NCBI RefSeq assembly: GCF_013365435.1
Contig: NZ_CP046577.1
Location: 960,001-992,000 of the forward strand
Source of the DNA: Wolbachia endosymbiont of Litomosoides sigmodontis
Lineage (GTDB): Bacteria; Pseudomonadota; Alphaproteobacteria; Rickettsiales; Anaplasmataceae
Reading direction: 5' to 3'
DNA length: 32,000 bases
Shown here: piece by piece, positions 5,210 to 32,000 of the stretch
How the letters are laid out: each line of letters opens with the position of its first letter
Position numbering within the stretch: the first letter of the stretch is position 1
The notes under the pieces: generated by a model
The model's input: only the letters and a program-made list of their open reading frames with translations
What the model was told of the DNA's origin: nothing
The model's database searches: none
Translations under genes and position numbers: made by a program

Positions 5210-6105
5210 CCAATTCCCACTGAGCAAGGAACGGATAGATAATGATGAGAAAGAAGTCATGCTGAAGTAAGTGAAATAACAAAGATTTAAATGGCGTTGA
5301 AATCAAAATTATCTGATAAAAAAGTTGTAAAATCAGCAAAAGAAATGCTGAAGAAAGTGCAAAATAGCGCACATATTGCAAAAAACTAAATGCTGCAATT
5401 GCAGTAAAAAGCACAATATAATAGCTGTAGCAAAAATACGCTGTATTTCAAGAACAGCACCACTGCATGGATAAATCATCTTAAATTTGAAAAAAGTAAA
5501 ATTATTTATTCTTTCAAAGCCATAAAAAACTAAATTAAATCAGAGTCAATTTGAATAAGTTGAAGTATGAATACAAGGAAACCTTATGTTATCATTAAGG
5601 AATGAAGATAATAATCAGGGAAAATTTGACTTGAGTATTAGCAAGTCTACAGCACATCTTAATATGCAAAAAATGTTATACATTACACCAAGACTAACTT
5701 GCAATGAACAAGATAAAGGTGGACAAGAGGAGTTAAAAAAAACTTGACGAGATTATTAGTAAGTATCTCAAAAAAAGTTACTTTTCTTTAATGAATTGTG
5801 GTTTAGCACACATTCAGAAGTTGGATACTGGTGATTAAAAAAGGATGTTAAAACGCAGATTAAAGTAAAATTAGGTAGATAAAGTTTTTACTTCTACAAT
5901 GCAGCCCATTTTAGAAATGGGAAGAATTCTATCTTATTTGCATCGAATGTCAACACTGATTATATAAATATGTTTCTTGAACAAATGTTGCAGTATTTAG
6001 AAACATGAAGAGCATTTCTTGTCATGAATTGTGCTAGTTAGTATAAGTAGAAAAATTTAAATGTACCTAAAAATATTGAGATTACATACCTACCATCATA
6101 CTTAT
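5210..6105 (+). mobile_element. degenerate IS630/Tc1-mariner-like element, copy A (3'-truncated)
   Basis: Begins TA|CCAATTCCCACTG. It carries a decayed HTH region and transposase body full of stops. It breaks off inside the YLPSY... (LPPYSPDLNPIE-like) block at the TA at 6105-6106. It is a near-identical inverted copy of 6292..7187. Confidence 0.8.
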
Positions 6106-6106
6106 A

Positions 6107-7187
6107 CTAATTCTCGTTATTAATTGGTTAAATAAGTAAAATTGCAAAGTTATTTGATTGCGAATGAGAAAGAGAGGTAATATGTTTATATAAAGTGCTT
6201 CCAAGCAAAGCAATTATGTTATAAACTTTATTATGCAAAATGGTCTGTTTATATAGATAACCAAAGTCTCTCAATAGGATTGAATTTAGGTAAGTATGTG
6301 ATGGTAGATATATAGTCTTAATATTTTTAGGCACATTAAAATTTTTCTACTTATACTAACTAGTACAATTCATGACAAGAAATGCTCTTCATGTTTCTAA
6401 ATACTGCAACATTTGTTCAAGAAACATATTTATACAATCAGTGTTGACATTCGATGCAAATAAGATAGAATTCTTCCCATTTCTAAAATGGGCTGCATTG
6501 TAGAAGTAAAAACTTTATCTACCTAATTTTACTTTAATCTGCGTTTTAACATCCTTTTTTAATCACCCGTATCCAACTTCTGAATGTGTGCTAAACCACA
6601 ATTCATTAAAGAAAAGTAACTTTTTTTGAGATACTTACTAATAATCTCGTCAAGTTTTTTTAACTCCTCTTGTCCACCTTTATCTTGTTCATTGCAAGTT
6701 AGTCTTGGTGTAATGTATAACATTTTTTGCATATTAAGATGTGCTGTAGACTTGCTAATACTCAAGTCAAATTTTCCCTGATTATTATCTTCATTCCTTA
6801 ATGATAACATAAGGTTTCCTTGTATTCATACTTCAACTTATTCAAATTGACTCTGATTTAATTTAGTTTTTTATGGCTTTGAAAGAATAAATAATTTTAC
6901 TTTTTCCAAATTTAAGATGATTTATCCATGCAGTGGTGCTGTTCTTGAAATACAGCGTATTTTTGCTACAGCTATTATATTGTGCTTTTTACTGCAATTG
7001 CAGCATTTAGTTTTTTGCAATATGTGCGCTATTTTGCACTTTCTTCAGCATTTCTTTTGCTGATTTTACAACTTTTTTATCAGATAATTTTGATTTCAAC
7101 GCCATTTAAATCTTTGTTATTTCACTTACTTCAGCATGACTTCTTTCTCATCATTATCTATCCGTTCCTTGCTCAGTGAGAATTAGG
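6107..7187 (-). mobile_element. degenerate IS630-like element, copy B (full length, about 1.08 kb, no intact transposase)
   Basis: The right-end terminus reads TA|CTAATTCTCGTTATTAATTGG on the + strand at 6105. ORF 6128..6334 keeps YLPSHTYLNSILLRDF (a relic of YLPPYSPDLNPIE). ORF 6559..6810 keeps the mid-transposase region. The left end is at about 7187. Confidence 0.8.
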
Positions 7188-7281
7188 CATAAGTAGGTTA
7201 CCACTTCACTATAAAATAAGTTTCCCTTACAAACTGTTTTGCTAATATTAATTCTCACACTAAACTCTAAATTAACTATAA

Positions 7282-7851
7282 ATGATGAAAAAGATAAAAT
7301 TAGGAATATTAATTTCAGATAGGGGATCAAACATGCAAGCATTGATGAAAGCATGTCAAGATTACAGCTTTCCTGCAGAAATGGCATGTGTTATCTCAAA
7401 TAATAATAAAGCTGCTGGTCTAAAAGTAGCAGAGCAGGCAGGAATGCCAACGTTTATTGTTAAAAATAAACCACTTGATGTTGATAAAATTCATGAAATA
7501 CTCGTTCAATATAAAGTCAATTTAGTTTGCCTTGCGGGATTTATGAGAATTCTCAAAGCTGACTTTCTTAGTAAATGGCATGGCAAAGTTATAAATATTC
7601 ATCCTTCTTTACTTCCTTCTTTTAAGGGACTAAATGCCCAGGAACAAGCTCTGAAAGCAGGTGTAAAAATTACAGGTTGTACTGTACATTACGTCACTCC
7701 TGAAGTTGATTCTGGAACTATAATTGCTCAAGCTGCTGTACCAGTGTTACCAAATGATACTATTCATAGTCTCTCAGAACGAATCTTAACTGAAGAGCAT
7801 AAATGTTACGTGAAAGCAGTAAAGTTAATAGCAATACTAAGTAAAAACTAG
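7282..7851 (+). CDS. purN: phosphoribosylglycinamide formyltransferase
   Basis: 189 aa with ILISDRGSNMQAL at the N-terminus, the catalytic block NIHPSLLPSFKG, and GCTVHYVTPEVDSGTIIAQ. Confidence 0.93.
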   Translation: MMKKIKLGILISDRGSNMQALMKACQDYSFPAEMACVISNNNKAAGLKVAEQAGMPTFIVKNKPLDVDKIHEILVQYKVNLVCLAGFMRILKADFLSKWHGKVINIHPSLLPSFKGLNAQEQALKAGVKITGCTVHYVTPEVDSGTIIAQAAVPVLPNDTIHSLSERILTEEHKCYVKAVKLIAILSKN

Positions 7852-8036
7852 AAAGACCGTAAAAGTACAGCTATCTTTTCCTTTATCAACCGCATTTTCA
7901 TTTTTAAAAAGGTATGATAAAACCTCAACTTTGCCTTTTTATTAACTGTATTACTATTAGCTTATTTACTATTATCTCCTTTCAGCATTTTCTTTAAAAA
8001 ACGAACCTCTTGTCGTTTTTCTCTGTCTTTCTTATA

Positions 8037-9115
8037 TCAATTCCCACTGTTAATAGACTAACAAGTGACATTGCAGAATTGCTTAATTCGGAGTGAAAAA
8101 GAGAGAAATAAATTTGCACAAAGTGCTTCCAAGTAAGGCAATTATATCATAAACTCTATTACGCAAATAGCTCTGTTTTATATACAATCAAAGTCTCTCA
8201 ATAGGATAAAACTTAGGTGGTATGATGGTAGGTATATAATCTTGATATTTTAAAATATCTTTAAATTTCTCTACTTATGTAGATTAGCATAATCCATGAT
8301 AATAAATGCTTCTCATGTCCTTAAACATTGCAACATTTATTCAAGAAATATATTCATATAATCAGTGTTGACATTCTGTATTAATAAGTTAGAGCTCTCT
8401 CCATTTCTAGGATTAACTGCACTGTAGAGATAAAAATTTTATTTACCTAATTTTACTTCAGCCTACGCTCTAACACCATTTTCAAATCATCCGTGTCCAA
8501 CTTTCGAATGTGTACTAAACTGCAATCCATCAAAGATGAGTAACTTTTTTTAAGATATTTGCTAATAGTTTCATTAAGTTTTTTTAAACTCTTCCTATTT
8601 ATCTTTATCTTGTTCATTGTAAATTGATCTTGGCATAATATATAAAAACTTCATTTTTCGCACATTAAGATGTGCTATAGACTTACTAATACTCAAGCCA
8701 AATTTTTCCTGATTATTATCCTCATTCCTTAATAGAAACATTAAGATTTTTTTGTATCCATACTTCAACTTGTTCAAATTAACTCTGATTCAATCTAATT
8801 TTTTTACAGCTTTGAAAGAGTAAACAATTTTACTTCTTTTCCAAATTTTAGGTGATTTGCCCATGCAGTAGCGCTGTTCTTGAAATGCAGCGTATTTTTG
8901 CTATGGCTATTATACAGTGCTTTTTGCTGTGATTAAAGCATTTAGTTTTTTGCAAAATATACATTATTTCTCACTTTCTTCAACACTTCTTTTGTCTATT
9001 CCACAACTTTATTTTGATTTTAAACGCTATTTAACTTCGCTATTTTACTTACTTCAATATAGCTCCCCCCCCTTTTCCACTATTGCCTAATCCATCCCAG
9101 TACAGCTAAAATTAG
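8037..9115 (-). mobile_element. degenerate IS630-like element, copy C (full length)
   Basis: Right-end terminus TA|TCAATTCCCACTGTTAATAG at 8035. The body is collinear with copy B at roughly 80% by eye. The left end is at ...AAATTAG|TA at 9115. Confidence 0.8.
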
Positions 9116-9508
9116 TATTAGAACACAGGTTAAAGTAAAATTAGGTAGATAAAATTTTCATCTCTATAGTGCAGTTAATCCTAAGAATAGAAAGAGCTCT
9201 AATAAATGTTGCAATATTTAAAGACATGAGAAGCTTTTATTATCAGGGATTATGCTAGTCTACATAAGTAGAGAAATTTAAAGATATTTTAAAATATCAA
9301 GATTATATACCTACCATCATACTCACCTAAATTTTATCCTATTGAGAGACTTTAGTTGTATATAAAACAGAGCATTTTGCGTAATAAAGTTTATGATATA
9401 ATTGCCTTATTTGAGAGCACTTTGTACAAATTTATCATCTCTTTTTCTCACTCAGCAATTAAACGACTCTCAATGTCACTTATCTGACCTATTAACAATT
9501 ATAATTAG
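9116..9508 (+). mobile_element. IS630-like right-half fragment, copy D, inverted against copy C
   Basis: Starts TA|TTAGAACACAGGTTAAAGTAAAATTAGG (element position about 645), directly abutting the left terminus of C. It ends ...ATAATTAG|TA at 9508. It carries an internal deletion of about 50 bp relative to C. Confidence 0.75.
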
Positions 9509-9527
9509 TATAAACACTTGTGTAAGG

Positions 9528-12191: not shown

Positions 12192-12368
12192 TACAATAAG
12201 ATATCAAATACTTATAAGTATAACTTAAGTTTTTTAAAAGAGAACTTTTTTGATATCTGTAAATTAAGTCAGCACATTAGCAACTCTTTAAGACTATTTT
12301 AACATTTAGCTTAACATTATTTACTAATCTTTTTGCAATAACTTTAGCAAAGTTGGAAGAAAGCTCCT

Positions 12369-13237
12369 TTATTTTTGCGAAAATGCGGCCCGCATAGGCT
12401 TTTTAACAAAGAAATACTCGGCAAACACAAATACTCTGCTGTCGGCATATAATATCATGGATGAAGCTATACTAAACAAAGTAGCAGAAGCGACCATTAA
12501 GCAACAACAAGTAAGCCCAGCCCGGCTAATGATATAGCGTCTATCAACACCATCATATTCAGTTATTAACTTTTTAACTTTTACTACTGTACAGCAAAAC
12601 AAGCACCCCAATGCAATTTATTATCACAAGCAAAATACGAAGTGAGTTCTATTAATCTCCTTCGTAGTAACTTTTTACAGGAGAAGCAGCTGCATTAAGA
12701 TCTACACCATACTTTAAAATAAAGCTAAGTGTTTTTCTTTTTCACACTCACTACAATGCATTATTTCATATAGTGGAGTGCTATCAAATATATTCTATAT
12801 ATTTAGGATCAGCCCTATATCTTTAAAACTAATTCTGCAACTTCATAGAATTTATCATGCGCAGCTCCATCTAATGGAGCAAGATCATGCATTCATTATA
12901 GATTAGAGTTAGCACTACACTCTAAAAGTAATTTTACAATATTACCACATGTGATAATTCCCAAATAACGCAATGAAGTATACTTACGGAATGTTTTTAT
13001 ACTAGAATTAAAATTCTTCTCTAAAAGCAGGCTTATAAGATCAATATTATACAAATTGATAGCAGCACCCAACAGCAAGTGACCCTGTACACATTTCATT
13101 AACGTAATCATCAAATTTCTCATCTTTACTACTCTTAAACTTGAAAAAGAGCTTATTAAGAAATAATGTATTTCTCTTGAAGAGAGCCGTATATAAGCAA
13201 AATTTTAAATCCTTGATAGAGCTAATTCTAGCTAATA
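12369..13237 (-). pseudogene. ankyrin-repeat protein with C-terminal transmembrane tail, frameshifted and 5'-truncated by the IS
   Basis: ANK-like repeats are spread over three frames: GHLLLGAAINLYNIDLISLLLEKN; TSLRYLGIITCGNIVKLLLECSANSNL; LAPLDGAAHDKFYEVAELVLK; STPLYEIM...; LKYGVDLNAAASP. The last ORF (12369..12611) holds a hydrophobic tail, GLTCCCLMVASATLFSIASSMILY. The upstream reading frame runs straight into the IS terminus at 13238. Confidence 0.6.
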
Positions 13238-13530
13238 CCAATTCTTATTGTTAGTAGGTCAAATAAGTAGCATTATAGAGTATTTAATTGCGAAGTGAGA
13301 AGAGAGATAGGTAATAAATTTGCACAAAGTGCTCTCAAGCAAGCAATTGTATTATTGCTTTATTATGAATAATGTTCTGTTTTATACACAATTAAAGTCT
13401 CTCAATAGGATTAAGCTCAGCTGAGCATGGTAGTAAGTATATAATCTCCGTATTTTTAGGTACCTTTAAAATTTTTTTAATTCATACCAATTAACACAAT
13501 TCATGATAAGAAAGTCTTCTATGCTATTAT
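13238..13530 (-). mobile_element. IS630-like right-end fragment E1 (about 290 bp)
   Basis: TA|CCAATTCTTATTGTTAGTAGGTCAAATAAG terminus at 13236. It is truncated at element position about 800 and abuts the left terminus of E2. Confidence 0.75.
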
Positions 13531-13531
13531 A

Positions 13532-14485
13532 GAAATTTCCACTTTACAAAGAACAGATAGATAATAATGGGGAAAAATCCTTGCTGAAGTAAGAAAAATA
13601 GCGAAGTCAAATGGCATTGAAATTATTAGTGAAAAAGTCGTGGAATCAATAAAAGAAATTCCGAATAAAGCATATATTGCAAAAAACTAAATGCTGTAAT
13701 TGCAGCAAAAAAAACACTGTATAACAGCCGTAGCAAAAATATATTGCATTTTAATAACAGCATAATTTCATGGATATAAAAAACTAATATTACCATATTA
13801 AAAAATGAAAATAATAGTTTAATAAAAATTTGGCTTGAATATCAGCAAATCTACAGTACACCTTAATATTCAAAAAATGAAGTTTTTGTATATTACGCCA
13901 AGAACAATTCACAATAAACAAGATAAAGGTAAGCTGGAAGAGTTTAAAAAAACTTAATGAGACTATTGACAAGTACTCTGAAAAAAGGTTACTCATCTTT
14001 GATGAATCGCGATTTGGCATACATTCAAAAATTAGCTACGAGTGATTTAAAAAGGGCGTTAGAACACAAATTAAAGTAAAATTAAGTAGATAAAAATCTT
14101 CATTTCTATAGAGCAAATAATCTTAGAAATGGAGATGATTCTAGCTTATTTGCACTGAATGTCAACACTGGTCATATGAATATATTTCTTGAATAAATGT
14201 TGTAATATTTAAAAATATGAGAAGCATTTCTTATCATAGATTACATTAGTTAACATAAGTCAACACATTCAAAAGTACTTAAAAATATGGAGATTATATA
14301 CCTACTACCATACTTAGTTGAACTTAATCTTATTGAGAGACTTTAGTTCATATAAAACAGAACATTTCGCATAATAAAGTTTACGATATAACTGCTTTGC
14401 TTGAGAGCGCCTGTTAAATCAACATAACTATAAATTAAAAGCATCATCATCTCTCTCAAATAAGCTTATTTACTCTTTATATTAG
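13532..14485 (+). mobile_element. degenerate IS630-like element, copy E2
   Basis: Keeps IFDESRFG (13995..14018, first-D region of the DDE transposase) and IIYLLPYLVELNLIERL (14293..14340, relic of YLPPYSPELNPIE). The frame is broken many times. The right end is eroded by deletions. Confidence 0.8.
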
Positions 14486-14820
14486 CTCGTCAACAAATTC
14501 ATTACCAGTTAATATTAGCAAAAATCTGGATTATAATTCACACCAAATTTAATTAAAAAATATGCATAAAATTCCGGACTAAAATAGGTAGTCCACTTCA
14601 TTCCACTTAGATATAGTTTAAATAATTGCTTTATCAGTAATTTCTTTGGAAAATCGTGGTAGTGCTTGCAATAAGATATCTTTTTCATAGCCCAAGTCTA
14701 TAGTACAGGCCATAAATAACAATATAAATAAATATGCCTTCTTCATATTCAAATTTTTAGTCTTTTTTTAACATTTAAATCTCATACACCACCTCAGATT
14801 TTCCTTGATGTAGGTAAAAG

Positions 14821-14894
<74 letters not shown>

Positions 14895-15003
14895 TCGTTA
14901 TTTATTTAGTTATTATATATGCAATAATGGGAAATAAAAGAATAAAATCACATTTTAAGGTGTATATTTTGGTATTCTTAAACTCTCCTTGATACAATAG
15001 TTA

Positions 15004-16074
15004 CACCATTATCATTGTTAATAGATTAAATAAGAGACATTGCAAAGTGAGAAAGAGAGTAATAAATTTACACAAAGCACTCTTAAGCAAAGCAATTATA
15101 TTATTGCTTTTATTTATAAAATGTTCTGTTTTATATATAACTAAAGTCTCTCAATAGAAGAGAGCTCAACTAAGTATGGTGGTAGGTATATAATCTACAT
15201 ATTTTTAAGTACTTTTGAATGTGTTGACTTATGTTAACTAATAACACAATCTATAATAAGAAAGGCTTCTCGTGTTTTAAAAAGTTACAACATTTATTCA
15301 AGAAATACATTCATACGACCAGTGTTGACATTCAGTCAAATAAGCTAGAATCATTTCCATTTCTAGGATTATTTGCACTATAGAGATAAAAATTTTGTCT
15401 ACTTAATTTTACTTTAATTTGTGTTCTAATATCCTTTTTAAACCACTCGTAGCTAATTTTTGAATATCTGCCAAATCGTGTTCATCAAAGATGAATAACC
15501 TTTTTTCAGAGTACTTACCAATAAGTCTCATTGAGTTTTTTTAAACTCTTTCTGCTACCTTTATCTTGTTTATTGTGAATTGTTCTTGGTGTAATACAAA
15601 AACTTCATTTTTTGAATATTAAGGCGTACTGTAGTCTTGCTGACATTCAAGCTAAATTTTTCTTAGATTATTATTTTCATTCCTTTAATGGCAATATTAT
15701 AGTTTCTTTGTATCTATACTTTAACTTATTCAAATTGACTTTGATTCAATCTAGTTTTTCTATGACTTTAAGAGAAAGCAAACAATTTTTCTTCTTCTCC
15801 AAATTTTAGGTGCTTTATCTATGTAGTTAGTGCTGTTCTTAAAATGAAACATATTTTTGCCACGGCTATTATACTCGCTTTTTTTGCCGCACTTACAGCA
15901 TTTAGTTTTTGCAACATATGTGTTATTTCGCACTTTTCTCAGCATTTCTTTTTCTAATTTTATGACTTTTTTCATCTAATAATTTCAATGCCATTTAAAC
16001 TTCGCTATTTTATTTACTTTAGCATGACTTCTTTTCCATTATTGTCTATTCGTTCCTTGTGTAATAGAAACTGG
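15004..16074 (-). mobile_element. degenerate IS630-like element, copy G1 (full length)
   Basis: Right-end terminus around 15004 (CACCATTATCATTGTTAATAG). Left end ...GAAACTGG|TA at 16074. Same decayed architecture as B, C and E2. Confidence 0.8.
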
Positions 16075-16078
16075 TATG

Positions 16079-16783
16079 AGAATAATAATTGAGAAAAAAA
16101 TTGACTTGGATGTCAACTGAGTATATAATACATTGCAATATGTAAAAAATGAAATTCTCGTATATTACGCCAAAACCAGTTCAAAGTGAACAAGGTTAAG
16201 AGGTAAACAGAAAGAGTTTAAAAAAAATTTAACGAGACTTATTGGTAAATACTCTGAAAAAAGGTTATTCATCTTTGATGAACACGATTTGGCAGATATT
16301 CAAAAATTAGCTACGAGTAGTTTAAAAAGGATATTAGAACACAAATTAAAGTAAAATTAAGTAGACAAAATTTTTATCTCTATAGTGCAAATAATCCTAG
16401 AAATGGAAATGATTCTAGCTTATTTGACTGAATGTCAACACTGGTCGTATGAATGTATTTCTTGAATAAATGTTGTAACTTTTTAAAACACGAGAAGCCT
16501 TTCTTATTATAGATTGTGTTATTAGTTAACATAAGTCAACACATTTAAAAGTACTTAAAAATATGGAGATTATATACCTACCACCATACTTAGTTGAGCT
16601 CTTTTCTATTGAGAGACTTTAGTTATATATAAAACAGAACATTTTATAAATAAAGGCAATAATATAATTGCTTTGCTTAAGAGCACTTTGTATAAATTTA
16701 TTTTATCTCTCTTTCCCACTCCGCAATTAAACTACTCTGCGACGTAGCTTATTGACCTATTAATTACTAATAGCAAGGATTAG
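16079..16783 (+). mobile_element. IS630-like 5'-truncated copy G2, inverted against G1
   Basis: Starts at element position about 390 (GAATAATAATTGAGAAAAAAATTGACTTGG), immediately after the TA flanking the left end of G1. It runs to a right-end terminus near 16783. Confidence 0.75.
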
Positions 16784-19293: not shown

Positions 19294-19329
19294 GTAAATT
19301 TCTACTATAATAAATTATCAAAATAATAA

Positions 19330-19797
19330 ATGGTGATGATTATGTCAATAGATTACAATATTAACCTAACTGACAGCGCATTAAAGAAAATTCATTCTCT
19401 TGTAGAGCAAGAAAAGGACAAAAGTTCTATTTTGCGAATTGCAGTTTCAGGTGGTGGATGCTCTGGCTTCAAGTACAATTTTCTTATGGACCAAATAAAT
19501 AAAAACCTATCTTTGAATGATGAAGATGACGATGAAGATGATGAATTTGATGATGAAGGTGATGATTATGAAGAAAGCGAAGACTATAGAGGACACTCTA
19601 GCTTGAGTGGAAAAAACAAAGATATAGTAATTAATGACAAAGATGGAAATCCTGTATTAATGATAGATAATTGTTCAGCGAAATTTTTAAATAATTCAAT
19701 TATAGATTATACTGAAGATTTAAGTGGCTCTAGTTTTCAAGTAAAGAATGCCATCGCTAAGTCTCAGTGTGGATGTGGCAATAGCTTTTCAGTTTAA
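19330..19797 (+). CDS. erpA: A-type Fe-S cluster insertion/carrier protein (ErpA/IscA/HesB family) with an acidic insertion
   Basis: Contains RIAVSGGGCSGFKYNF and a C-terminal CGCGNSFSV. About 40 extra residues, including NDEDDDEDDEFDDEGDDYEESEDY, lie between the conserved blocks. The start may be Met-5 (19342). Confidence 0.8.
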   Translation: MVMIMSIDYNINLTDSALKKIHSLVEQEKDKSSILRIAVSGGGCSGFKYNFLMDQINKNLSLNDEDDDEDDEFDDEGDDYEESEDYRGHSSLSGKNKDIVINDKDGNPVLMIDNCSAKFLNNSIIDYTEDLSGSSFQVKNAIAKSQCGCGNSFSV

Positions 19798-20692: not shown

Positions 20693-20710
20693 GACTAAAT
20701 CTTTTTCTAA

Positions 20711-21409
20711 TTAAGCACACTCTTTTACTCTCACCTCTTTTCTAACCTTTTGAGAAGAAATAGCTGTACTATTTAAGCGTAATCTTACATAATTGTCTAT
20801 AATTTGAGTTACTTCCTCTTCTTTATCTCTCAAGAAGTGATTAGTGTCGTCTATAATGTGGTATTCCATGTGACCACTCTTTACTGAATTTATCAGCCTT
20901 CTTGCTAACTCTGTTACATTGCTTTCTTCTGAAATTGTGTCATTACTGCTTTGTATGATAAGCCCAGGAACTGGACAAGGAGAGAGAAAAGAAAAATCAT
21001 ATTTTGTTACTGGAAGGGAAAGAGCAATAAAACCTACTATCTCAGGTCTACGCATTGTTAATTGCATAGCTACCCATGCTCCAAAAGAAAAACCAACAAT
21101 CCAAATTGGAACGTTACTAGGATTATGTTCTTGAAGCCAATCAATAGCTATTGCAGCATCAGTTAATTCTCCTATACCCTTATCGAAGGTTCCTGTAGAT
21201 TTTCCAACACCACGGAAGTTAATCTTCAATGCAGAAAAATTATTATCTATGAAAGATGTATATATACTATGTATTATTTTACTATCCATACTTCCACCAT
21301 ATTGAGGGTGATGGTGTAAAATTAACACAACTGGTGCATTGATTTCTTTGCTTTGGTGATACTCACCTTCTATTTTTTTTGTTGCATTATTCAAAAAAAC
21401 TTCTACCAT
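20711..21409 (-). CDS. alpha/beta-fold hydrolase (COG2945-like)
   Basis: 232 aa with the nucleophile elbow VGFSFGAW (G-x-S-x-G), a late D and H (SSNDTI, TNHFL), and LILHHHPQYGGSM near the N-terminus. Confidence 0.75.
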   Translation of the reverse strand: MVEVFLNNATKKIEGEYHQSKEINAPVVLILHHHPQYGGSMDSKIIHSIYTSFIDNNFSALKINFRGVGKSTGTFDKGIGELTDAAIAIDWLQEHNPSNVPIWIVGFSFGAWVAMQLTMRRPEIVGFIALSLPVTKYDFSFLSPCPVPGLIIQSSNDTISEESNVTELARRLINSVKSGHMEYHIIDDTNHFLRDKEEEVTQIIDNYVRLRLNSTAISSQKVRKEVRVKECA

Positions 21410-21542
21410 AGCAGCTCCTAATAAAGACCTGTTAACAGATATATAAATTGTGCATGTATTAATTATGTATTAATTTTACTATTCTTGCAACAAGCTTTTT
21501 ATCGTGTTAAAGCTAATATATAGTTAATAGCAGGTTAATTAA

Positions 21543-22703: not shown

Positions 22704-23177
22704 TTGACTAGCACAAAAAAACTACTTGAACAAACCTTGCCAGCTCTTTTAAACCATTAGAATTGAACATATTCAGTTATCTTTAATCTCTGCAGAGAGA
22801 AAATGATAAGGTATCATAGTTGGCGTCTTATGTTTAATTTTTTGCACCATACACATCATGTTTTAACAATGTTTCTAGTTCTATATCTATAGAAACCGAA
22901 ATATGCTTACAGATCGCTCGAAGTAATATAATATATTAATTTTAGAATTAGAAAATAAGCAACTTTTACCACAGAATTCTCTCGCCTTTTTCTGCTTAAT
23001 AAAATTTAAAAACATTTATGACTAAAGGTTAATTGTAATAAAAGGTAGCTGAGTCGCGGTAAGTATTCAAAATATAAAAAACACCTATGTTTTTAAATAG
23101 ATATTAACTAGTGCTTTTTCTCATTTGAGCCCCTTAACTGCTCAAGCAAAAATTTGTCACAAATTATGAAGCTAATA

Positions 23178-23619
23178 CTAATTCTCACTATATTAACAGG
23201 CCAAATAAGTGAAATTATAGAGTTGTTTAATTGCAGAGTGAGAAAGGGAGGTAATAAATTTGCAAAGCGCTCTCAAGCAAAGCAATTGTATGATAGACTT
23301 TATTACGCAAAATATTCTATTCTATATATAGAATTAAAGTCTCTCAATAAGATTTAGCCCAGGTGAATTGGTGGCAAGTATGTAATCTCAATATTTTTAG
23401 GTACCCTTAAATTTTTCGGTTTATTTTAATTAGAATAATTCTAGCCAAGAAAGGTTTTTCATATTCTTAAGCATTGCAACATTTATTCAAGAAATATATT
23501 CGTATAATTAGCGTTGACACCCGGTACAAATAAGCCAAAATTCTCTACATTTCTAAGATTAATTGCACTATAGAGATAAAAATTTTGTCTATCTAACTTT
23601 ACTTTAATCCATGTTCTAA
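23178..23619 (-). mobile_element. IS630-like right-half fragment F1 (about 440 bp)
   Basis: TA|CTAATTCTCACTATATTAACAGG terminus at 23176. It is truncated at element position about 645 (...CATGTTCTAA|TA) and abuts the left terminus of F2. This is the same junction as C/D in the opposite orientation. Confidence 0.75.
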
Positions 23620-23621
23620 TA

Positions 23622-24544
23622 CCAATTCTCATTTTATAAGCAACGAATAGATAATAACGGAAAAGAAGTCATACTAAAGTAAGCAAAATAACGAGGTTCA
23701 AATGATGATGAAATCAAAATTATGGGGTAAAAAGCCTTGGAAATTAGCAAAAGAAATACTGAAGAAAGTGTAAAACAACGCACATGTTATAAAAAATTAA
23801 ATGCTGTGATTGCAGCAAAAAAAAGCATAATATAATACTGTAGCAAAAATATGTTTCATTTTAGGAATAACACTAACTACATGGACAACGTACTTAAAAT
23901 TTAGAAGATAAGTAAAATTGTTTACTCTCCTTCAACATTGTAAAAGAACTAGATTAGTCAGAGCCAATTTGAACAAGTTGAAGTATAGAACAGAAAAACT
24001 TAATGAGATTATTGGTAAGTATCATAAACAAGAGTTATTCATCTTTTATAAATCTCGGTCTGATACATATTCGAAAATTGAACACTAGTGATTTAAAAAA
24101 GGTATTAAAACACAAGTTAAAGTAAAATTAGATAGACAAAATTTTTATCTCTATAGTGCAATTAATCTTAAAAAGAGAGAGAATTCTGGCTTATTTGTAC
24201 AGAATGTCAACGCTAATTATATGAATATATTTCTTGAATAAATGTTGCAATATTTAAGAACATAACAAGCCTTCCTTGGCATGAATTATTCTAATTAACA
24301 TAAGTTAAAAAATTTAAAAGTACCTTAAAATATCAAGATTATATACTTATTACCATATTCACCAAAGTTTAATCTTATTGAGAGATTTTAATTACATATA
24401 AAACAGAACATTTTGCGCAACAAAGTCTATAATGCAATTCCTTGCTTAAGGAAGCTTTATGCAAATTTATTGCCTCTCTTTTTTACTCTACAATAAAATA
24501 ATCCTGCAATGTCACTTATTTAAGTTACTAACAAAGAAAATTGG
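23622..24544 (+). mobile_element. degenerate IS630-like element, copy F2 (internal deletion of about 190 bp)
   Basis: Left terminus TA|CCAATTCTCATTTTATAAGC and right terminus ...GAAAATTGG|TA at 24544. The block between about 23985 and 24000 is missing relative to other copies. Confidence 0.8.
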
Positions 24545-24546
24545 TA

Positions 24547-25024
24547 TAAAAAGCGAAAAAGAGAGAATGGAAAATTGATTTGATTGTAAAAAGAAATCTA
24601 TATCGAACTGATTTACACGAGGAAATCATAAAATCAAGATCCCAATGTTACGCATTGTAATAGCAGAGGAAAAGGAGTGCTGTTATGACAGGAAAATAAT
24701 GTGTCATTTCAACACATGATTAGGGAAAAAGACATAAATCTCAGTGGCATTGAAAAGACAACGATTGAGGTATCATGAAAGTGTCTGGACTGCAGAATAG
24801 TGCGATCTTAGCCTACTAATGGCGCAAACTTTAGTGCATGACATTAGAATTTATAACTAACGATAATTTACTTTTATCGTCTAAAATCTATATCGAATAC
24901 AAGGATTAAAGTCAACTAGATTACAGTGTTACGCACTAAAATGATAAGAAAAGTACAGAAATAACGTAATGGAACGTTATCCAGGTGGTTACCAATCTCA
25001 AGAAAGTGCAACATCATTACTTGT
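24547..25024 (+). repeat. R480 repeat, copy 1 (unclassified)
   Basis: About 480 bp, collinear with 27910..28397 at roughly 85% by eye. Both copies start right after the TA that follows an IS right terminus. It contains two direct sub-repeats of about 90 bp (AAATCTATATCGAA...GTTACGCA...). Confidence 0.7.
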
Positions 25025-25610
25025 ATAGAAAAATCAAAACCATATTCGCATGGCTACATGCATACAAAAATGAAGTGCATTTTGGTCATTAACAAAATTG
25101 ATCTGGTAAAAAAGCTGAGCTAAAGATAGTGTGCGGACATCTGAACTTGCTTTATAAATTTGAAAAAACTTTTATAATATCAGCATTAAAAGAGTGATGG
25201 ACTTTATAAGTTAATGGATTACTTATCTGAAGTTGTACTGGTAAGTTCTCAATTTTATAGGAAAGATCAGGTAACTAATTCCTCGACAGGTTTTTTGTTC
25301 AGCGAAAATTACAAAGGGAAAATTGTTCTTGAATTTGCATAAGGAATTTCCATATTCTGCAGATGTCATAACAGAACAATTTGAAGAGGGAAAAGATGAA
25401 AGTTTGTCCATAAAACAAGTAATGTTTGTCCTGAAAGATAGTCATAAAAAATAGTGCTAGAGAAGCCGTGAAAGTAATATTAAGGAAAAAATTGGCATCA
25501 AAGGTATGTGTTGAATTAGAAAAGTTATTTGAGCATAAAATGCATCTATTTTTGTTTTTGAAAATACAACATTGAACTGATCACCTAAGGAACATATAGA
25601 AAATGTTTAA
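25025..25610 (+). pseudogene. era: era pseudogene (lacks about the first 100 codons, many frameshifts and stops)
   Basis: Collinear with era 30085..30667. Reads EKSKPYSHGYMHTKMKCILVINKIDLVKK-LS*R*..., with stops and frame changes throughout. Confidence 0.85.
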
Positions 25611-26412
25611 TTCTTTATTGGTATTTGATATTGAAACTATACCAGATGTAAATTCCTGCAGGAATTTACTCGATATTAATAATAGTAGCGTAAAAGAGAA
25701 AAGAGATGCGTTAACAAAATACCACCTTGAAATAACAAACGGACAAAACCCCTTTTTGCGTCAGCCCTTTCACCAAGTTATAGTTGTTAGTTTTTTACTT
25801 TGCAGTGTAGCTTACCAAAGTGGTTACGAAGTATTCACCCTTCAGGAAATTAGATCTGGAGGCACACTAGATTCCAGTGAAAAGGAACTGGTAAAAGAAT
25901 TTTTTGACTACATATCAGAAAAAAAACCAAGGCTAATTTCTTTCAATGGACGCACTTTTGACATACCAGTACTTAAATATCGTGCTATGGTCCATGGCAT
26001 CCAAGCAGAATATTTTCATAAAGCTGGCGATAAGTGGAATAGCTATAATCAAAGATATAGTAGTGATTGGCATTGTGATTTACTCGAATCTCTCTCTGAT
26101 TTTGGAGCATCTGCTAGAGTAAAAATGAACGAGGTCTGTGCAGCATTTAATCTTCCTGGTAAAATTGGAGTTGATGGATCGCAAGTTGTAGATTTGTATG
26201 ATAGCGGTAAAATACAAGAAATCCGAAATTATTGTGAAACAGACGTAGTTAACACTTATTTAATTTATTTGAGATTTATGCATCATCAAGGAAGAATCAC
26301 TACCAAAAGCTACAACAAAAATGTAGAGGAGCTACTCTCGGAATGCGAAAAAAAAGCGCACCTAAAAAAATTTAAAGAGGAGTGGGAAATATATCTACAC
26401 TCAGCTAAGTAA
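25603..26412 (+). CDS. PolB-like 3'-5' exonuclease (DEDDy, RNase H-like fold, COG3298-type)
   Basis: 269 aa with Exo I LVFDIETIPD, Exo II LISFNGRTFDIPVL and Exo III NYCETDVVNTYLIY. The start is embedded in ATGTTTAA, which overlaps the (decayed) era stop. Confidence 0.8.
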   Translation: MFNSLLVFDIETIPDVNSCRNLLDINNSSVKEKRDALTKYHLEITNGQNPFLRQPFHQVIVVSFLLCSVAYQSGYEVFTLQEIRSGGTLDSSEKELVKEFFDYISEKKPRLISFNGRTFDIPVLKYRAMVHGIQAEYFHKAGDKWNSYNQRYSSDWHCDLLESLSDFGASARVKMNEVCAAFNLPGKIGVDGSQVVDLYDSGKIQEIRNYCETDVVNTYLIYLRFMHHQGRITTKSYNKNVEELLSECEKKAHLKKFKEEWEIYLHSAK

Positions 26413-26526
26413 CGTGAAAGATGATAGGCAGGAGATTGTAGAAGGTTTTAGCTCCTTTTATTTTCATGCTAAGTATGATAAAATTATTCATTCAAGGAAT
26501 GAATTTCCTCTTCCGATTGAGTAACA

Positions 26527-26814
26527 CCAATTATCATTGGTAATAGGTCAAATAAGCGACATACAGAATTGCTTAATTGCAAAATGAGAAAAGAGAGGTG
26601 ATAAATTTGCAAAAGCACTCTCAAGCAAAGCAATTGTACTATAGACTTTACTATACAAATGTTCTGTTTTATATACAAATAAAGCCTCTCATAAGATTAA
26701 GCTCTAGTGAGTATGGTGATAGGTATATAATCCTGATATTTTTAGGTACCTTTAAATTTTCTGACTTATGCTAACTAGAACCATACATGACAAGAAAGGT
26801 TTTTTGTGTTTTTA
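26527..26814 (-). mobile_element. IS630-like right-end fragment H1 (about 290 bp)
   Basis: Terminus CCAATTATCATTGGTAATAGGTCAAATAAG. It is truncated at element position about 800 and abuts the left end of H2. Same junction class as E1/E2 and I1/I2. Confidence 0.75.
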
Positions 26815-26816
26815 TA

Positions 26817-27907
26817 ATAATTTGCAATGTAAAGAAAAAGATAGACAATAATAGAAAAGAAATCTTACTGAAGTAAGTAAAATAGCGAGATTCAAACGCT
26901 GTTAAAATCAAAATCATTGAATAAAAAAGTAATGAAATCAGCAAAAGAAATACTGAAGAAAGTGCAAAATAACGTACATGTTGTAAAAAATTAAATGCTG
27001 TAACTGCAGCAAAAAAGCACAGTATACTAGCGTAGCAAAAATATGTTGCACTTCATAAACAACATTAATTGCATGGATAACGCACCTAAAATTTGGAAGA
27101 TAAGAAAAATTATTTACTCTCCTTCAACATCGTAAAAAAACCAGATCAGTCATAGTCAATTTGAATAAGTTGGACATAAAACAAGAAAACTCTAACATTA
27201 TCATTTAAAGAAATGAGGATAGAAATCTAGGAAAATTTGGCTTAAATGTTAGAAAATCTACAATACATCGTAATACGCAAAAAATGAAGTTTTCATATAT
27301 CACGCCAAGACCAGTTTATAGTAAACAAGATTAAAGGTAAATAAGAAGAGTTTTAAAAAATTTAATGAGATTATTGGTAAATATCATGAATAAGAGTTGT
27401 TCATCTTTGATGAATCTCGGTTTGGCATACAATTCGAAAATTGAACACTGGTAATTTAAAAAAGGCATTAGGGCATAGATTAAAGTAAAATTAAGTAAAC
27501 AAAATTTTTATCTCTACAGTGCAGTTAATTCTAGAAATGCAGAAACCTATGGCTTACCTACATCAAATGTCAACATTAATTATCGAATATATTTCTTGAA
27601 TAAATGTTGCAATATTTAAGAACATGAAAAACCTTTCTTGACATGAATTATTCTAATTAACATAAATTAAAAAATTTAAAAGTACCTAAAAATATCAAGA
27701 TTATATACTTACTACCATACTCACCCAAATTTAATCCTATTGAGAAATTTTAGTTATATATAAAACAGAGCATTTTGCACAACAAAGTCTATAATGCAAT
27801 TACTTTACTTGAGGAAGCTTTATACAAATTTATTACCTTTCTTTTTTACTCTACAATAAAATAACTCTGCAATGTCACTTATTTGACTTGCCAACAAAGA
27901 AAATTGG
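26817..27907 (+). mobile_element. degenerate IS630-like element, copy H2 (full length)
   Basis: Left end ATAATTTGCAATGTAAAGAAAAAGATAGACAATAATAG and right end ...GAAAATTGG|TA at 27907. The frame is broken throughout. Confidence 0.8.
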
Positions 27908-27909
27908 TA

Positions 27910-28397
27910 TAAAAAGCGAAAAAGAGAATGGAAAATTGATTTGATTGTGAAAAGAAATCTATATTGAACTGATTTACATGAGAAAATCATAAAATAAAAT
28001 CGAGATCCCAATGTTACGCATTGCAATGACAGAGGAAAAGTAGTACCTAATATGACAGGAAAATAATGTGTCATTTTAACATATGATCAGGAAAGAAGAC
28101 ATAAATCCCAATGGTATTATTAGAAAGGCAATGATTGAGGCATCAGAAAGTGGCTGGACTATAGAGCAGTGCAATTTTGCCTACCAATGGGGTAAACCTT
28201 AGTGCATGACACTAGAATTTATAATTAACGATGATTTATTTCTATCATCCTGAAATCCATATCTGATATAATGGTCAAAGTTAACTAAGATTACAGTGTC
28301 ACGCGCTGAAATGATAAGAAAAGTGCAAGAATAACGTGATGAAACGCTATCCAAGTAAATTACCAATCTCAAGAAAGTGTAGCAGCATCATTTATTG
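27910..28397 (+). repeat. R480 repeat, copy 2
   Basis: Collinear with 24547..25024. Similarity ends at ...ATCATTTATTG, where copy 1 continues into era' and copy 2 continues into the SurA-like remnant. Confidence 0.7.
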
Positions 28398-28419
28398 AGA
28401 TCTTAAAAAATAATTGTGA

Positions 28420-29625
28420 CATTATTTCTCTTATAGAGTCTTGAAATATTGGATCTTTAACGTTAACCTGGATTACAATATCAGTTTTAAAATCTGTATT
28501 ACCTTCAAGTTATTTATTACTGTGCCTCGCAACCTTGAGTCACTTATCACAGCAGTGTAAAAATCTGGATTTTGCACGTAACTTCATCAGTTAACCTTTT
28601 TTATTATTAGGAAATAGTTTGGTAACTACTTCTTTAGCTATTGGGTCCATTCCTTTTTTGCTAAAAACCTTTGCTATTTGACCTTATACTCTATACCAGT
28701 GATACCAAGAGATCCACTAAGCTTTTCTACTAGAATTAATTTTTGGTCATCTTTCGCATCAAGCACTTTTTTTACTACAGCTGATGTTCCAAGATCAGCA
28801 ATTTTGACAAATATCTTAGCTAATTCACTTTCAACAATCTTTACTCCTTTATTGCTAATACCCCTTCACATTAAATATTGCTCCTATTAAAGCTTTTTCT
28901 TTATCTGTTTGAGTTGCAATGCTTGATTCATCAGCTTTAACAAAGCGAGCCTTTTTCAGCTAAGAAATCCTTAACTGTCATTTTAGAATTGCTGTTGCCG
29001 TACACTGCGCTAAGCTCATCAAAAGATCTAGCAAATTTTTCTATTAGAATTGATTTTCGGTCATCTTTTGAAGAAAGTACTTTCTCTGTGAAAACTTTTT
29101 GATTTGCTGCATCTGTCAGATTGGAAGTATCTTTTTTAACAAACTTGCCTTCTAGTTCAGTTTTACAACTTTTTTTACTCGAATTACTTAGATCTGTTAC
29201 TCTAAACATAGCATCTGCAATAGGCTTTATTGACACTTCTTCTGCAAGGAGTATCGCTGTATCAGCGAACATTCTTCATATCAAGAACATCCTTCATAAG
29301 GAGCTCTTTTATAACTTCTTCTGCAAGAATTAATCTACCACCTATAGCTTTTTATGTAGCAAGCAATGTACTTACAATGTTACCAAGACCTTTTATTTGA
29401 ATTGCGCTACATCTCTTTTCTGATATATAAATTTTACCTTTCCTTTCAGCAGATTGCTTAATTTGATATCATTAATGTTAACTAGAGCAGAAATATTTGA
29501 AGCATCTTATGGTATTAGTCGTTGCCTCCACCATCTTTATAAATTATAGCTTTAACTTCATTTAGACATAATGTCATTCCTTTGGCTTTTACTAATTTTC
29601 CATAAAGATGAAAATTATCTACCAT
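28420..29625 (-). pseudogene. heavily decayed gene, possibly a SurA/PpiD-type periplasmic chaperone
   Basis: Minus-strand fragments occur in several frames. They include an N-terminal MVDNFHLYGKLVKAKGMTLCLNEVKAIIYK, LILAEEVIKELLMKDVL / ILLAEEVSIKPIADAMF, and two similar blocks, KDDRKSILIEKFARSFDELSAVYGNS and KDDQKLILVEKLSGSLGITG. The two blocks resemble the helix plus loop that precede parvulin cores. The family call is tentative. Confidence 0.3.
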
Positions 29626-29782
29626 ATCACTCTCTGTCAATTATAAAATCTAAAGATATATAAAAAAGTATAATTTTCATAAATGTCAGATCTTATATAA
29701 GACCCTCTTAAAGTTTATTGTTTTAGAATTCTCTTCATTGCACGCTTGACACTAAAACCTAGTTTTCTTTACAATTTCCTTT

Positions 29783-30667
29783 GTGAAAGAACAAAAATGC
29801 TTATTTATTACCATAGCTGGTTTACCAAATGCAGGAAAGTCTACACTAATTAACAGCATTATCGGTAAGAAAATTGCAATCGTTACTCCCAAAGTGCAAA
29901 CAACGAGAACACAAATAAGGGGTATTGCAATATGCAATGATACACAAGCTATCTTTACTGACTCTCCAGGGATATTTTCAGCGGAAACAAAACTTGAGAA
30001 AGCCCTGATCAAATCCGCATGGTCAGCAATCAAGGGTGATGACGTTACTTTGTTGCTTATTGATGTGAGTAATTATTTGGAAAATATAGAAAAAATCAAA
30101 ACCATATTCGCACGGCTGCAGCACATGAAAACAAAGTGCATTTTGGTCGTTAACAAAATTGATCTGGTAAAAAAATCTGAGCTAAAGATGGCATACGAAC
30201 ATCTGAATTTGCTTTATAAATTTGAAAAAACTTTCATAATATCAGCACTAAAGAGCGATGGACTTTCTGATTTGATGAATTACTTATCTAAAGTTGCACC
30301 GGTAAGCCCTTGGTTTTATGGAGAAGATCAGGTGACTGATTCCTCAACGTGGTTTTTGTCAGCGGAAATTACAAGGGAAAAATTGTTCTTGAATTTGCGT
30401 GAAGAATTGCCATATTCTGCAGCTATCAGGACCGAACAATTTGAAGAGAAAAAAGATGAAAGTTTAGTCATAAAACAAGTGATATTTGTACTGAAAGATA
30501 GTCATAAAAAAATAGTGCTAGGGAAGAGTGGAAGTAATATTAAGAAAATTGGCATTGAAGCGCGTATTGAATTAGAAAAGTTATTTGAGCGTAAAGTTCA
30601 TCTATTTTTGTTTGTGAAAGTGCGACCTTGGACTGATTGTCCTGAAGAATATATAGATGATGTTTAA
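29783..30667 (+). CDS. era: GTPase Era
   Basis: 294 aa starting at GTG. Contains G1 AGLPNAGKST, G3 DSPG, G4 NKID, and a C-terminal KH domain (VLGKSGSNIKKIGIEAR). Confidence 0.95.
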   Translation: MKEQKCLFITIAGLPNAGKSTLINSIIGKKIAIVTPKVQTTRTQIRGIAICNDTQAIFTDSPGIFSAETKLEKALIKSAWSAIKGDDVTLLLIDVSNYLENIEKIKTIFARLQHMKTKCILVVNKIDLVKKSELKMAYEHLNLLYKFEKTFIISALKSDGLSDLMNYLSKVAPVSPWFYGEDQVTDSSTWFLSAEITREKLFLNLREELPYSAAIRTEQFEEKKDESLVIKQVIFVLKDSHKKIVLGKSGSNIKKIGIEARIELEKLFERKVHLFLFVKVRPWTDCPEEYIDDV

Positions 30668-31378
30668 TCCTTTGTTGGCATTTGATATTTAAACTATACC
30701 AGATGTAAATTCCTGCAGAGATTTGCTCAGTATTAGCGATGATAATAGTATAAAAGAGAAGAGAGGCGCGTTAACAAAATATTAACTCGTAATAATAAAT
30801 GGACAAAACCCTTTCTGTATCAGAATTTTCACCAAGTTGAAGTCATTAATTTTTTAATTTGCAATCAACTTAACAAAGTGGTTATGAAGAACACTAGATT
30901 TCAGTAAAAAAGAACTAGTAAAAGGATTTTTTAATTACATATCAGAGAAAAAAACAAGCTAATTTCCTTACAATAGATACACGTTTGAAATACCAATACT
31001 GAAATATTATGCTATGGTCCATAGCATTTAAGCAGAATAACTATAATCAAAGATATAGTAGTGGTTAGCATTGTGATTTACTTAAATCTTTCTCTGATTT
31101 TAAGCCTCTGCTAGAGTAAAAATGAATGAGATTTGCATAGCCGTTTAATTTTCTTGGAAAAATTAGAGCTGATTGCTTACAAGTTGTAGGCTTGTATAAT
31201 AGTAGAAAAATACAAGAAATTCAAGATTATTCTGAAGTAGAAGTAGTTAACACTTAATGGAAGAATCACTACCTAAAGCTACAACAAAAATGTAGAGGAG
31301 ATGCTTTTGGAATGCAAAAAGCGCACCTAAAACATTTTAAAGAGAAGTGGAGAATATACCTCCATATTCAGCCAAGCG
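30660..31378 (+). pseudogene. PolB-like exonuclease pseudogene (paralog of 25603..26412)
   Basis: Starts with the same ATGTTTAA overlap with the era stop. Reads MFNPLLAFDI*TIPDVNSC..., so the Exo I glutamate codon is now TAA. It has many further stops and deletions and is about 90 bp shorter than the intact copy. Confidence 0.85.
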
Positions 31379-31496
31379 GTGTGGAAGATAATAGGTAGAA
31401 GATTGTGAAAAAGATTTAGCTCATTTTATTTTTATGCTAAGTATGATAAAATTATCCATTCAAGGAATACATCTCCCTCATTCCAATTGAGGAATA

Positions 31497-31776
31497 TCAA
31501 TTATCATTGTTAATAAGCCAAATAATCAACATACAGAATTGCTTAATTGCAAAATTGAGAGAGAGGGTAATAAATTTGCACAAAGCATTTTCAATACAAA
31601 GCAATTGTACCATAGACTTTGCTACCATTTTATATATAATTAAAGCCTTTCAATAAGGCTAAGCTCTGATGAATATAGTGATAGATATATAATCTTAATA
31701 TTTTGAGGTACCTTTAAATTTTTTGACTTATGCTAATTAAAGCATACATGACAAGAAAGGTTTCTCATGTTCTTAC
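31497..31776 (-). mobile_element. IS630-like right-end fragment I1
   Basis: TA|TCAATTATCATTGTTAATAAGCC terminus at 31495. Collinear with H1 at roughly 87% by eye and has the same junction to the following copy. Confidence 0.75.
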
Positions 31777-32000
31777 AATAATTCGCAACGTACAAGAAAA
31801 AGATTTTCAATAATAGAAAAGAAATCTTACTGAAGTAGGTAAAATAGCAAGATTTAAACGCTGTTAAAATCAAAATCATTGAATAAAAAAGCAGTGGAAT
31901 CAGCAAAAGAAATGCTGAAGAAAGTGCAAAATAACGCACATATTGTAAAAAACTAAATGCCGTAATTGCAGCAAAAAAGCACAGTATAATAGCACTGCAA
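31777..32000 (+). mobile_element. degenerate IS630-like element, copy I2 (runs off the window)
   Basis: Left end ATAATTCGCAACGTACAAGAAAAAGATTTTCAATAATAG. Collinear with the H2 5' region. Confidence 0.75.

Follow-up and report, generated by a model that had tools for sequence, protein, structure and literature searches.

Here we report an analysis of the remnants of an insertion sequence (IS) of the IS630 family in a 32,000-nucleotide stretch of the genome of wLsig, the Wolbachia of Litomosoides sigmodontis (contig NZ_CP046577.1, positions 960,001 to 992,000; this whole stretch is called the window below). The window is AT-rich (G+C ~31%) and contains 14 fragments of one 1.09-kb element, detected by nhmmer and arranged as seven abutting inverted pairs. 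Six of these pairs consist of an inverted right-end arm joined to a full copy and are bounded by two right ends, and one (A/B) is bounded by two left ends. We consider it fairly probable that the pairs originated by inverted insertion of the element into its own copies, that like-ended parts of the resulting structures were then mobilised, and that host recombination reshaped them afterwards.

The published complete genome of wLsig (supergroup D, 1,045,802 bp, 32.1% G+C) was assembled with Canu from PacBio circular consensus sequencing (CCS) reads of PCR-amplified captured fragments, and its IS content was given as ISsaga counts only, with degraded copies uncurated (PMC8116671). A 1085-bp consensus was built from the window copies and used for the nhmmer search of the window; element positions refer to this wLsig consensus unless stated otherwise. 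The sister sample was obtained by scanning a conserved 24-mer over one genome per species, which gave matches only in wLbra, the Wolbachia of Litomosoides brasiliensis (20 tiles; loci L002-L020 are from this genome). The two genomes are 81-87% identical in their syntenic parts, as expected of different species, and differ in G+C content (34.5% in wLbra vs 32.1% in wLsig). An additional 36 kb of wLsig sequence was also examined, namely 15 kb flanking the window and a 21-kb region around pyrD.

Inverted pairs of one element in the window

The fragments and pairs described in a first-pass annotation of this DNA, including the six pairs of the right-right type, were recovered at coordinates within a few bases (Table 1). 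Right arms start at element positions 795-797 in pairs E, H and I. Those of F and C/D start at 634-637 and that of G at 392, which bears out the proposed breakpoint classes of about 800, 645 and 390, and the identical TTAGAACA junction noted in F and C/D was confirmed. The layout of the six right-right loci also stood, but H and I, which had been counted separately, are copies within one tandem duplication and so record one pairing event. The A/B pair had been set apart as a different, tail-to-tail kind; instead, left arm A (1-909) abuts the right terminus of B, making the pair the mirror, left-left form of the others.

Table 1. Element fragments and other features, with nhmmer spans in parentheses and element positions in the description
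Feature	Position	Strand	Description	wLbra orthologue
A	5208-6104 (5211-6111)	+	Left arm, element 1-909 (aligned 2-909); left terminus outward, broken end at TTA (ancestral TCA) touching the right terminus of B	
B	6105-7189 (7186-6109)	-	Full-length dead copy, aligned 1-1083; left-left composite with A	Left end at start of contig L014, positions 3-94
C	8035-9117 (9114-8038)	-	Full-length dead copy, aligned 2-1084	C/D at L014 998-2022; flanks 84-94% identical
D	9118-9510 (9106-9504)	+	Inverted right arm 635-1085 (aligned 634-1081), class 635; joins left terminus of C at TA-TTAGAAC, giving right-right composite C/D	
E1	13236-13529 (13528-13238)	-	Inverted right arm 797-1085, class 795	L014 6098-6391
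E2	13530-14485 (13535-14415)	+	Aligned 4-263 and 395-1002; internal deletion ~264-394; position 1002 reached at 14415, final ~70 nt unrecognisable	Internal deletion also present
G	15003-16076 (16067-15008)	-	Full-length dead copy, aligned 8-1082	
G1	16077-16766 (16073-16763)	+	Inverted right arm 392-1072, class 392/403; joins left terminus of G at TA-TGAGAAT	
F1	23176-23619 (23628-23182)	-	Inverted right arm 637-1081, class 635	
F2	23620-24546 (23623-24544)	+	Aligned 2-361 and 533-1085; internal deletion 361-533	
H1	26525-26814 (26815-26527)	-	Inverted right arm 795-1085, class 795	L010 1090-1360
H2	26815-27909 (26833-27907)	+	Full-length dead copy, aligned 18-1085	
I1	31495-31775 (31791-31498)	-	Inverted right arm 783-1084, class 795	
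I2	31776-32000 (from 31780)	+	Full-length copy, aligned from 3; leaves the window and ends at window-equivalent 32870	
Example termini	5205-5209, 9116-9120, 27908-27912; L023 2914-2920; L024; L025		Termini showing TA-T-N-A-(G/C)	
Tandem duplication, copy 1	24547-26524		Paralogue at 27910-28392 and 30085-31494	
tRNA-Met	14820-14894	-	Between inverted copies E2 and G; only tRNA of the window	

No copy in the window contains an open reading frame (ORF) of at least 100 aa. The second half of the target copy, which a simple nested insertion would retain contiguously with the first, was found at none of the seven pairs. A profile hidden Markov model search of the window with the 14 fragments masked detected no other element sequence at E<=10, so that the complementary halves are indeed absent from the window, as had been claimed. 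The pairs also differ from composite transposons, in which two complete IS bracket a cargo: one of the two partners is a partial arm, and it directly adjoins the other without intervening cargo. Nor are they of the foldback type, with arms built of subrepeats and no internal terminus, because their arms consist simply of element sequence and the inner junction has a complete internal terminus, TA included.

Identity and decay of the element

The assignment to IS630 made in the first-pass annotation was borne out by the degraded wLsig consensus, which matches the IS630 model NF033545 of NCBIfam (103 bits vs a cutoff of 100) and the DDE_3 domain (Pfam PF13358; 72 bits vs 28.6). The terminal inverted repeats are ~14-16 bp long with 2-3 mismatches in the consensus, short as in IS630 elements; their sequences are (TA)CCAATTCCCACTGT at the left end and, in reverse complement, (TA)CTAATTCTCATTGT at the right end. 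The copies in wLbra are less decayed, and their 1097-bp consensus encodes a 334-aa transposase that is intact except for one shift at an A8 run. Along its entire length, this protein shows 86% identity with intact IS630 family transposases found in arthropod Wolbachia; with that of ISWpi10 the identity is 73%. The arthropod Wolbachia genes themselves have 1006-1012 nt, which is not a multiple of 3, give no straight translation to the product and, in L023, carry an A9 run, which indicates that the transposase is probably expressed by programmed slippage, that is, by a programmed frameshift.

At the positions of stop codons common in wLsig copies, wLbra mostly retains TGG, CAA or CGA. Given this pattern and the near-intact wLbra consensus, the family descends from an autonomous element whose copies decayed in parallel. 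The ~23 stops of the wLsig consensus had raised amplification of already dead copies as a candidate explanation, which was rejected: the N-terminal stops vanish in the correct frame, the C-terminal ones represent parallel GC-to-AT decay, and the wLbra consensus is interrupted by its A-run frameshift only. The family tree is star-like, with a mean pairwise identity of 79% (SD 3.8) and 79-85% identity between orthologues. The wLbra copies lie nearer to the family consensus (nearest neighbours 83-87%) than do the wLsig copies (72-80%); pseudogene DNA in wLsig seems to evolve faster or under a stronger AT bias, many of its stops being TGG/CAA/CGA-to-stop changes.

Target site and inner junctions

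IS630 elements are known to insert at TA with duplication of the TA. At the 50 termini that face unique DNA, the outward sequence begins with T (96%), A (98%), T (94%), N and A (92%), followed by G (48%) or C (26%). The flanking TA of the first-pass annotation is confirmed by these frequencies (96-98%); its role as the target is not. In three intact copies from arthropod strains the element lies in C-TCA-[TA…TA]-TCA-G, C-TAA-[TA…TA]-TAA-G and C-TTA-[TA…TA]-TTA-G, so that most likely the TA belongs to the element as its terminal dinucleotide, and what is duplicated on insertion is a TNA within a CTNAG-like site. Among decayed copies, a comparison of TNA on both sides does not separate TA duplication from TNA duplication.

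The inner junctions of the pairs consist of the terminus with its TA followed by TTAGAAC, TAAGAAC, TAAGTAT or TGAGAAT, which match ancestral TNAG sites at positions 657 (equal to 635 of the wLsig consensus), 807, 556 and 403, respectively, of the wLbra consensus. An element-owned TA with a TNA target fits all four of these right-arm junctions (4/4). TA as the integration target fits none of them (0/4), since the ancestral sequence has CG, AA or an extra TA in place of TA, and was rejected. Left arms likewise end in TNA ahead of the TA-terminus of their partner, and the TGA(403) and TAA(556) sites serve right arms and left arms at different loci. Because all inner junctions are canonical under the TNA rule, we regard them as shown to be transposase products, the pairs having begun as integrations of the element into its own sequence.

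Recurrent like-ended composites

The absence of solo copies noted by the first-pass annotation holds inside the window but not beyond it. Four solos occur in the additional 36 kb of wLsig: two in the flanking 15 kb (one 3.7 kb upstream of the window, the other 4.9 kb downstream) and two in the 21-kb pyrD region, which also has two right-right composites of class 635. The wLbra sample contains ~9 solos, ~9 right-right composites, 4-5 left-left composites and four double-armed loci, the last with non-contiguous arms (384/635, 400/635, 71/799 and 400/556) and gaps of ~155-730 bp. Composites make up about two thirds of the loci, far above chance, and the abutting pairs in both genomes are all inverted, none direct. 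Two further wLbra loci, L018 338-855 and L020 7557-7999, have element positions 1-229 joined to ~964 down to 669 on the opposite strand, an internal-to-internal junction with no terminus, as if a mid-copy segment had been inverted.

The class-635 junction is present at eight or more loci (C/D, F, the two composites near pyrD, and L006, L008, L013, L016 and L015 in wLbra), the flanks of which are unrelated except between orthologues. Each of these composites is bounded by true termini and none is accompanied by the complementary half; no left arm ending at the class-635 site was found among the wLsig and wLbra loci examined. This is the pattern expected of a mobile like-ended composite, with the same inner junction at several unrelated loci. 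Classes 795, 556 and 403 are each represented at two or more loci. The chance of 7 of 14 right-arm junctions falling on one of 89 TA sites is P<=6e-9; for the same clustering over 17 TNAG sites we estimate ~1e-4, a value reckoned by the author and not computed with a tool.

An independent example is provided by L025, from the Wolbachia of Dactylopius coccus, where an intact copy is joined to an inverted left arm (1-153, 93% identical) and this left-left composite as a whole is flanked by TTA…TTA in a C-TTA-G target. The check for duplications at the outer ends of composites, which the first-pass annotation had framed in terms of TA, gave a divided result for TNA: the outer TNA agree at F, A/B, L008, L016 and L025, and disagree at C/D, H/I, L005 and L013. 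Among decayed solo copies the TNA match is even rarer than among composites.

Age of the pairs and later recombination

Orthologous composites with matching flanks were found in wLbra for C/D and E (both in L014) and H/I (L010), as well as for both composites of the pyrD region. Because of this orthology, the pairs predate the split of wLsig and wLbra and are not artefacts of the wLsig assembly. In a third Wolbachia genome, GCA_902646685.1, there is no element copy near pyrD, and 786 bp of other sequence, comprising part of a 344-aa ORF and a secretin fragment, occupies the site of one wLsig composite (comparison of L026 12203-13729 with L027 3822-4608); rnc, the gene next after pyrD in that genome, is missing from wLsig.

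Self-BLAST of the window with elements masked revealed a tandem segmental duplication, in which 24547-25018 matches 27910-28392 (83%) and 25024-26524 matches 30085-31494 (78%). Within it, H2 resembles I2 in its left part (87-92%) and F2 beyond position ~800 (89-91%), the right ends of H2 and F2 are 90% identical, and H1 is 84-86% identical to I1. H2 is the recombinant joint of this duplication and bears the signature of an unequal crossover between two direct copies, by which H was derived from I and F. Decay of the two duplicate units was complementary. One unit has an intact era (29783-30667), of which a stop-riddled fragment (25010-25607) is left in the other; conversely, a 269-aa ORF with DNA-polymerase-B-exonuclease/RNase H-like domains is intact in the latter (25603-26412) and a pseudogene in the former (30660-31365). 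The full copies of two class-795 composites in wLbra, L002 6852-7999 and L010 7-1362, are 91-97% identical, far above the family background, which implies a recent duplication or conversion in that genome too, involving the H/I orthologue.

Recombination between direct repeats probably also acted at E and G. The wLsig segment E2-tRNA-Met-G-G1 (13530-16766) corresponds to a single copy in wLbra (L014 6392-7354) that is collinear with E2 on the left and with G1 on the right, the simplest reading of which is a direct-repeat deletion between E2 and G1 in wLbra that would have removed the tRNA-Met gene. None of the wLbra tiles examined contains a tRNA-Met.

Several pairs show unusually similar arms. 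In A/B, identity between the two is 98-100% along 890 bp; G/G1 is a mosaic, with a 97% identical tract of 485 nt and divergence in the first ~145 nt of G1; C and D share a 122-nt tract of 96% identity and are 88.6% identical overall, vs only 79-83% to the wLbra orthologues. Over the seven window pairs, within-pair identity falls with spacer length (Spearman rho -0.94; H and I are non-independent members of this n=7) and rises with arm length (rho 0.86). These data show that arm-to-arm gene conversion homogenised the longer and closer arms, in A/B, G/G1 and parts of C/D and F, and we attribute the high identity of A/B and G/G1 to such later conversion, not to recent formation.

Other genes of the window

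The housekeeping genes of the window are alphaproteobacterial and include sdhB, ybeY, ftsZ, purN, sucA, ribD, a dGTPase gene, erpA, lolD, a cysteine desulfurase gene and era. The ErpA-like ORF (19330-19797, 155 aa) matches the 115-residue iron-sulfur insertion protein model in two stretches (~11-58 and ~96-155), which suggests a mid-protein insertion of ~40 residues.

Origin and history of the composites

The proposed history starts from one burst of an autonomous 1.09-kb IS630 element in the common ancestor of wLsig and wLbra, close kin of which are still intact in arthropod Wolbachia. As its first step, shown by the junctions, copies integrated in inverted orientation into copies of the same element at ordinary TNA sites, preferably those with G next. 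Such an inverted nesting would have presented four outward termini, of which the transposase may have paired two right ends or two left ends, so that a unit of inverted right arm and full copy, or its left-left equivalent, could reinsert elsewhere and leave the complementary half behind; the right-right composite with the junction at ~635 would then have become a successful subfamily. Nestings in direct orientation and partial tandem duplications would have collapsed to a single copy by direct-repeat recombination, which inverted pairs cannot do, and such survivorship may account for the inverted-only pattern. Finally, after the death of the transposase, host homologous recombination reshaped the fossils, as shown by the duplications and conversion tracts described above.

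Of the two options put forward in the first-pass annotation, a mobile like-ended composite and a repeatedly acting one-sided process, the former is better supported. We favour the mobilisation of like-ended sub-composites as units because the class-635 junction recurs at unrelated loci with no complementary halves and no left arm at the same site, and because L025 carries a matching TTA duplication around the entire pair; the higher in vitro activity of a Mos1 transposon with two right ends, described below, points the same way.

Several observations weigh against this interpretation. The outer TNA match in only ~5 of 9 independent composites, vs ~33% expected by chance. No empty-site/filled-site polymorphism was found for any composite, every composite of judgeable orthology being common to both species, and the outgroup comparison at pyrD revealed a 786-bp replacement and no clean insertion site. 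The full copies of class 635 share no diagnostic substitutions (0 sites vs a null mean of 1.1), so a common founder of this class is not established, although the test by tree and diagnostic sites has little power given the star-like tree; the pattern left by a common founder would also be produced by a very hot target site if right-right composites were preferentially mobilised. The double-armed loci need an extra step, for example insertion of a composite into another copy followed by direct-repeat collapse, and the correlation of arm identity with spacer length is absent in wLbra. Sampling of wLbra was slightly biased towards composites, since the 24-mer used is located in full copies and in long right arms.

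The strongest competing explanation, which we nevertheless judge unlikely, is a one-sided process of foldback type, in which the left end of a copy, once cleaved, attacks a TNA site located on the other strand of that copy or of its sister. The resulting strand would consist of the full copy in reverse complement and the segment from the attacked site to the right end; its replication and cleavage at the two right ends would yield a right-right composite, and classes would recur at preferred sites. Such a process accounts for the exclusively inverted products, the ever-missing other half and the canonical terminus-TA/TNA junctions, and it agrees both with the lack of shared diagnostic substitutions in class 635 and with the use of TGA(403) and TAA(556) by right and left arms at different loci. 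However, it leaves unexplained the eight or more right arms and zero left arms at TTA(657), and the likeness of arm and partner in E, H and I is no higher than background, though age could have erased it. Excision and re-integration of the composite would still be required, so that it differs from the mobilisation of nested composites only in the origin of the founders. To our knowledge, a single-end self-integration intermediate is not known for IS630/Tc1-mariner transposases, which also counts against it.

A less probable explanation still is that ordinary nested insertions occurred in place at hot spots, that the other half of each target was lost afterwards through the strong deletion bias of an endosymbiont genome undergoing reduction, and that no composite ever moved. 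The precedent of 18 nested IS cases in Wolbachia (PMC3205602) speaks for it, and junction-spanning deletions do occur, as in the C/D orthologue of wLbra, which lacks the left terminus and arm positions 634-750; parts of both halves are retained at the four double-armed wLbra loci, and the outgroup comparison indicates DNA loss beside one composite. Yet the other half is lacking from every one of the seven window pairs and from most composites of wLbra, the terminus of the full copy and its TA-TNA flank are intact where random deletions would not always have stopped, and eight or more right arms start at the 635 site where no left arm ends.

That the pairs are palindromic chimeras from PCR-based capture and PacBio library preparation is scarcely credible: wLsig was indeed assembled from CCS reads of PCR-amplified captured fragments (PMC8116671) and A/B is a near-perfect palindrome with 890-bp arms, but C/D, E, H/I and two other composites occupy orthologous sites in the independently assembled wLbra, the arms of all window pairs other than A/B (98%) have diverged to 76-90% identity, unique genes bound every pair on both sides with unduplicated flanks, and the junctions obey the target rule of the element.

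Significance and comparison with known systems

If like-ended composites were mobile, they would provide natural evidence that an IS630/Tc1-mariner element moves, and even spreads preferentially, between two identical ends, and they suggest a route to long terminal inverted repeats. We suggest, as a tentative and somewhat doubtful extension, that the two-right-end composite, in particular that of class 635, was a natural, more active IS630 derivative that multiplied more than its parent did in the ancestor of the Wolbachia of Litomosoides; if so, it would be a bacterial counterpart of a laboratory result on mariner and a snapshot of the birth of a long-terminal-repeat Tc1/IS630 element. A transposase with an intrinsic one-ended self-integration activity that makes such composites is another possibility. 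As a graded series of inverted repeats in a reduced endosymbiont genome, the fossils also allow gene conversion to be related quantitatively to the length and spacing of the arms. They illustrate how IS copies, though dead, continue to cause duplications and deletions in Wolbachia of supergroup D, the genomes of which are more rearranged than those of other filarial Wolbachia (PMC8116671). A practical consequence is that short-read assemblies break at such pairs, several wLbra contigs ending inside one, and that automated counts of IS become inflated or confused.

The element itself is an ordinary Wolbachia IS630. It resembles the ISWpi10/ISWpi11 group in length (1097-1098 bp), termini (TACCAATTC...GAATTGGTA) and the A-run frameshift site, and differs from that group in that all copies here are pseudogenes and like-ended inverted composites account for about two thirds of the loci, an arrangement of which we found no description for the Wolbachia IS630 family in the literature searched. 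Conversion among non-functional IS copies has a precedent in wBm, according to the citation of Cordaux 2009 in PMC3205602. There too, as far as that citation goes, dead IS copies of a filarial Wolbachia are kept or made similar by conversion, whereas here conversion acted between the two arms of one inverted pair and scales with arm length and spacing.

Nested IS insertions are also known from Wolbachia, with 18 split copies in wMel, wRi and wPel (Cerveau et al. 2011, PMC3205602). As in those cases, a copy here is integrated in another at a normal target, and the inner junction consists of a terminus and the target duplication. In simple nesting, however, both halves of the target flank the insert, whereas the second half is missing at 7/7 window pairs. 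In the 'double Ds' of maize and the alternative transposition of Ac/Ds, an element likewise inserts in inverted orientation into an identical one, and unconventional pairs of ends are then used; that system is eukaryotic and of the hAT superfamily, and its outcome is chromosome breakage, not the amplification of half-composites.

The closest parallel is the engineered Mos1 transposon with two right ends, which transposed in vitro 26-fold better than the natural arrangement (PMC4505599). Mos1 belongs to the same IS630/Tc1/mariner superfamily, its identical ends are functional, and right-right composites likewise outnumber left-left ones here. The Mos1 constructs were made in the laboratory with short terminal repeats, whereas the second right end here brings with it 290-690 bp of inverted element body and the activity is deduced from fossils. 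Seen beside these systems, the recurrent two-right-end composites look like a genuine variant of known transposon behaviour, one that is, as far as we could find, undescribed.

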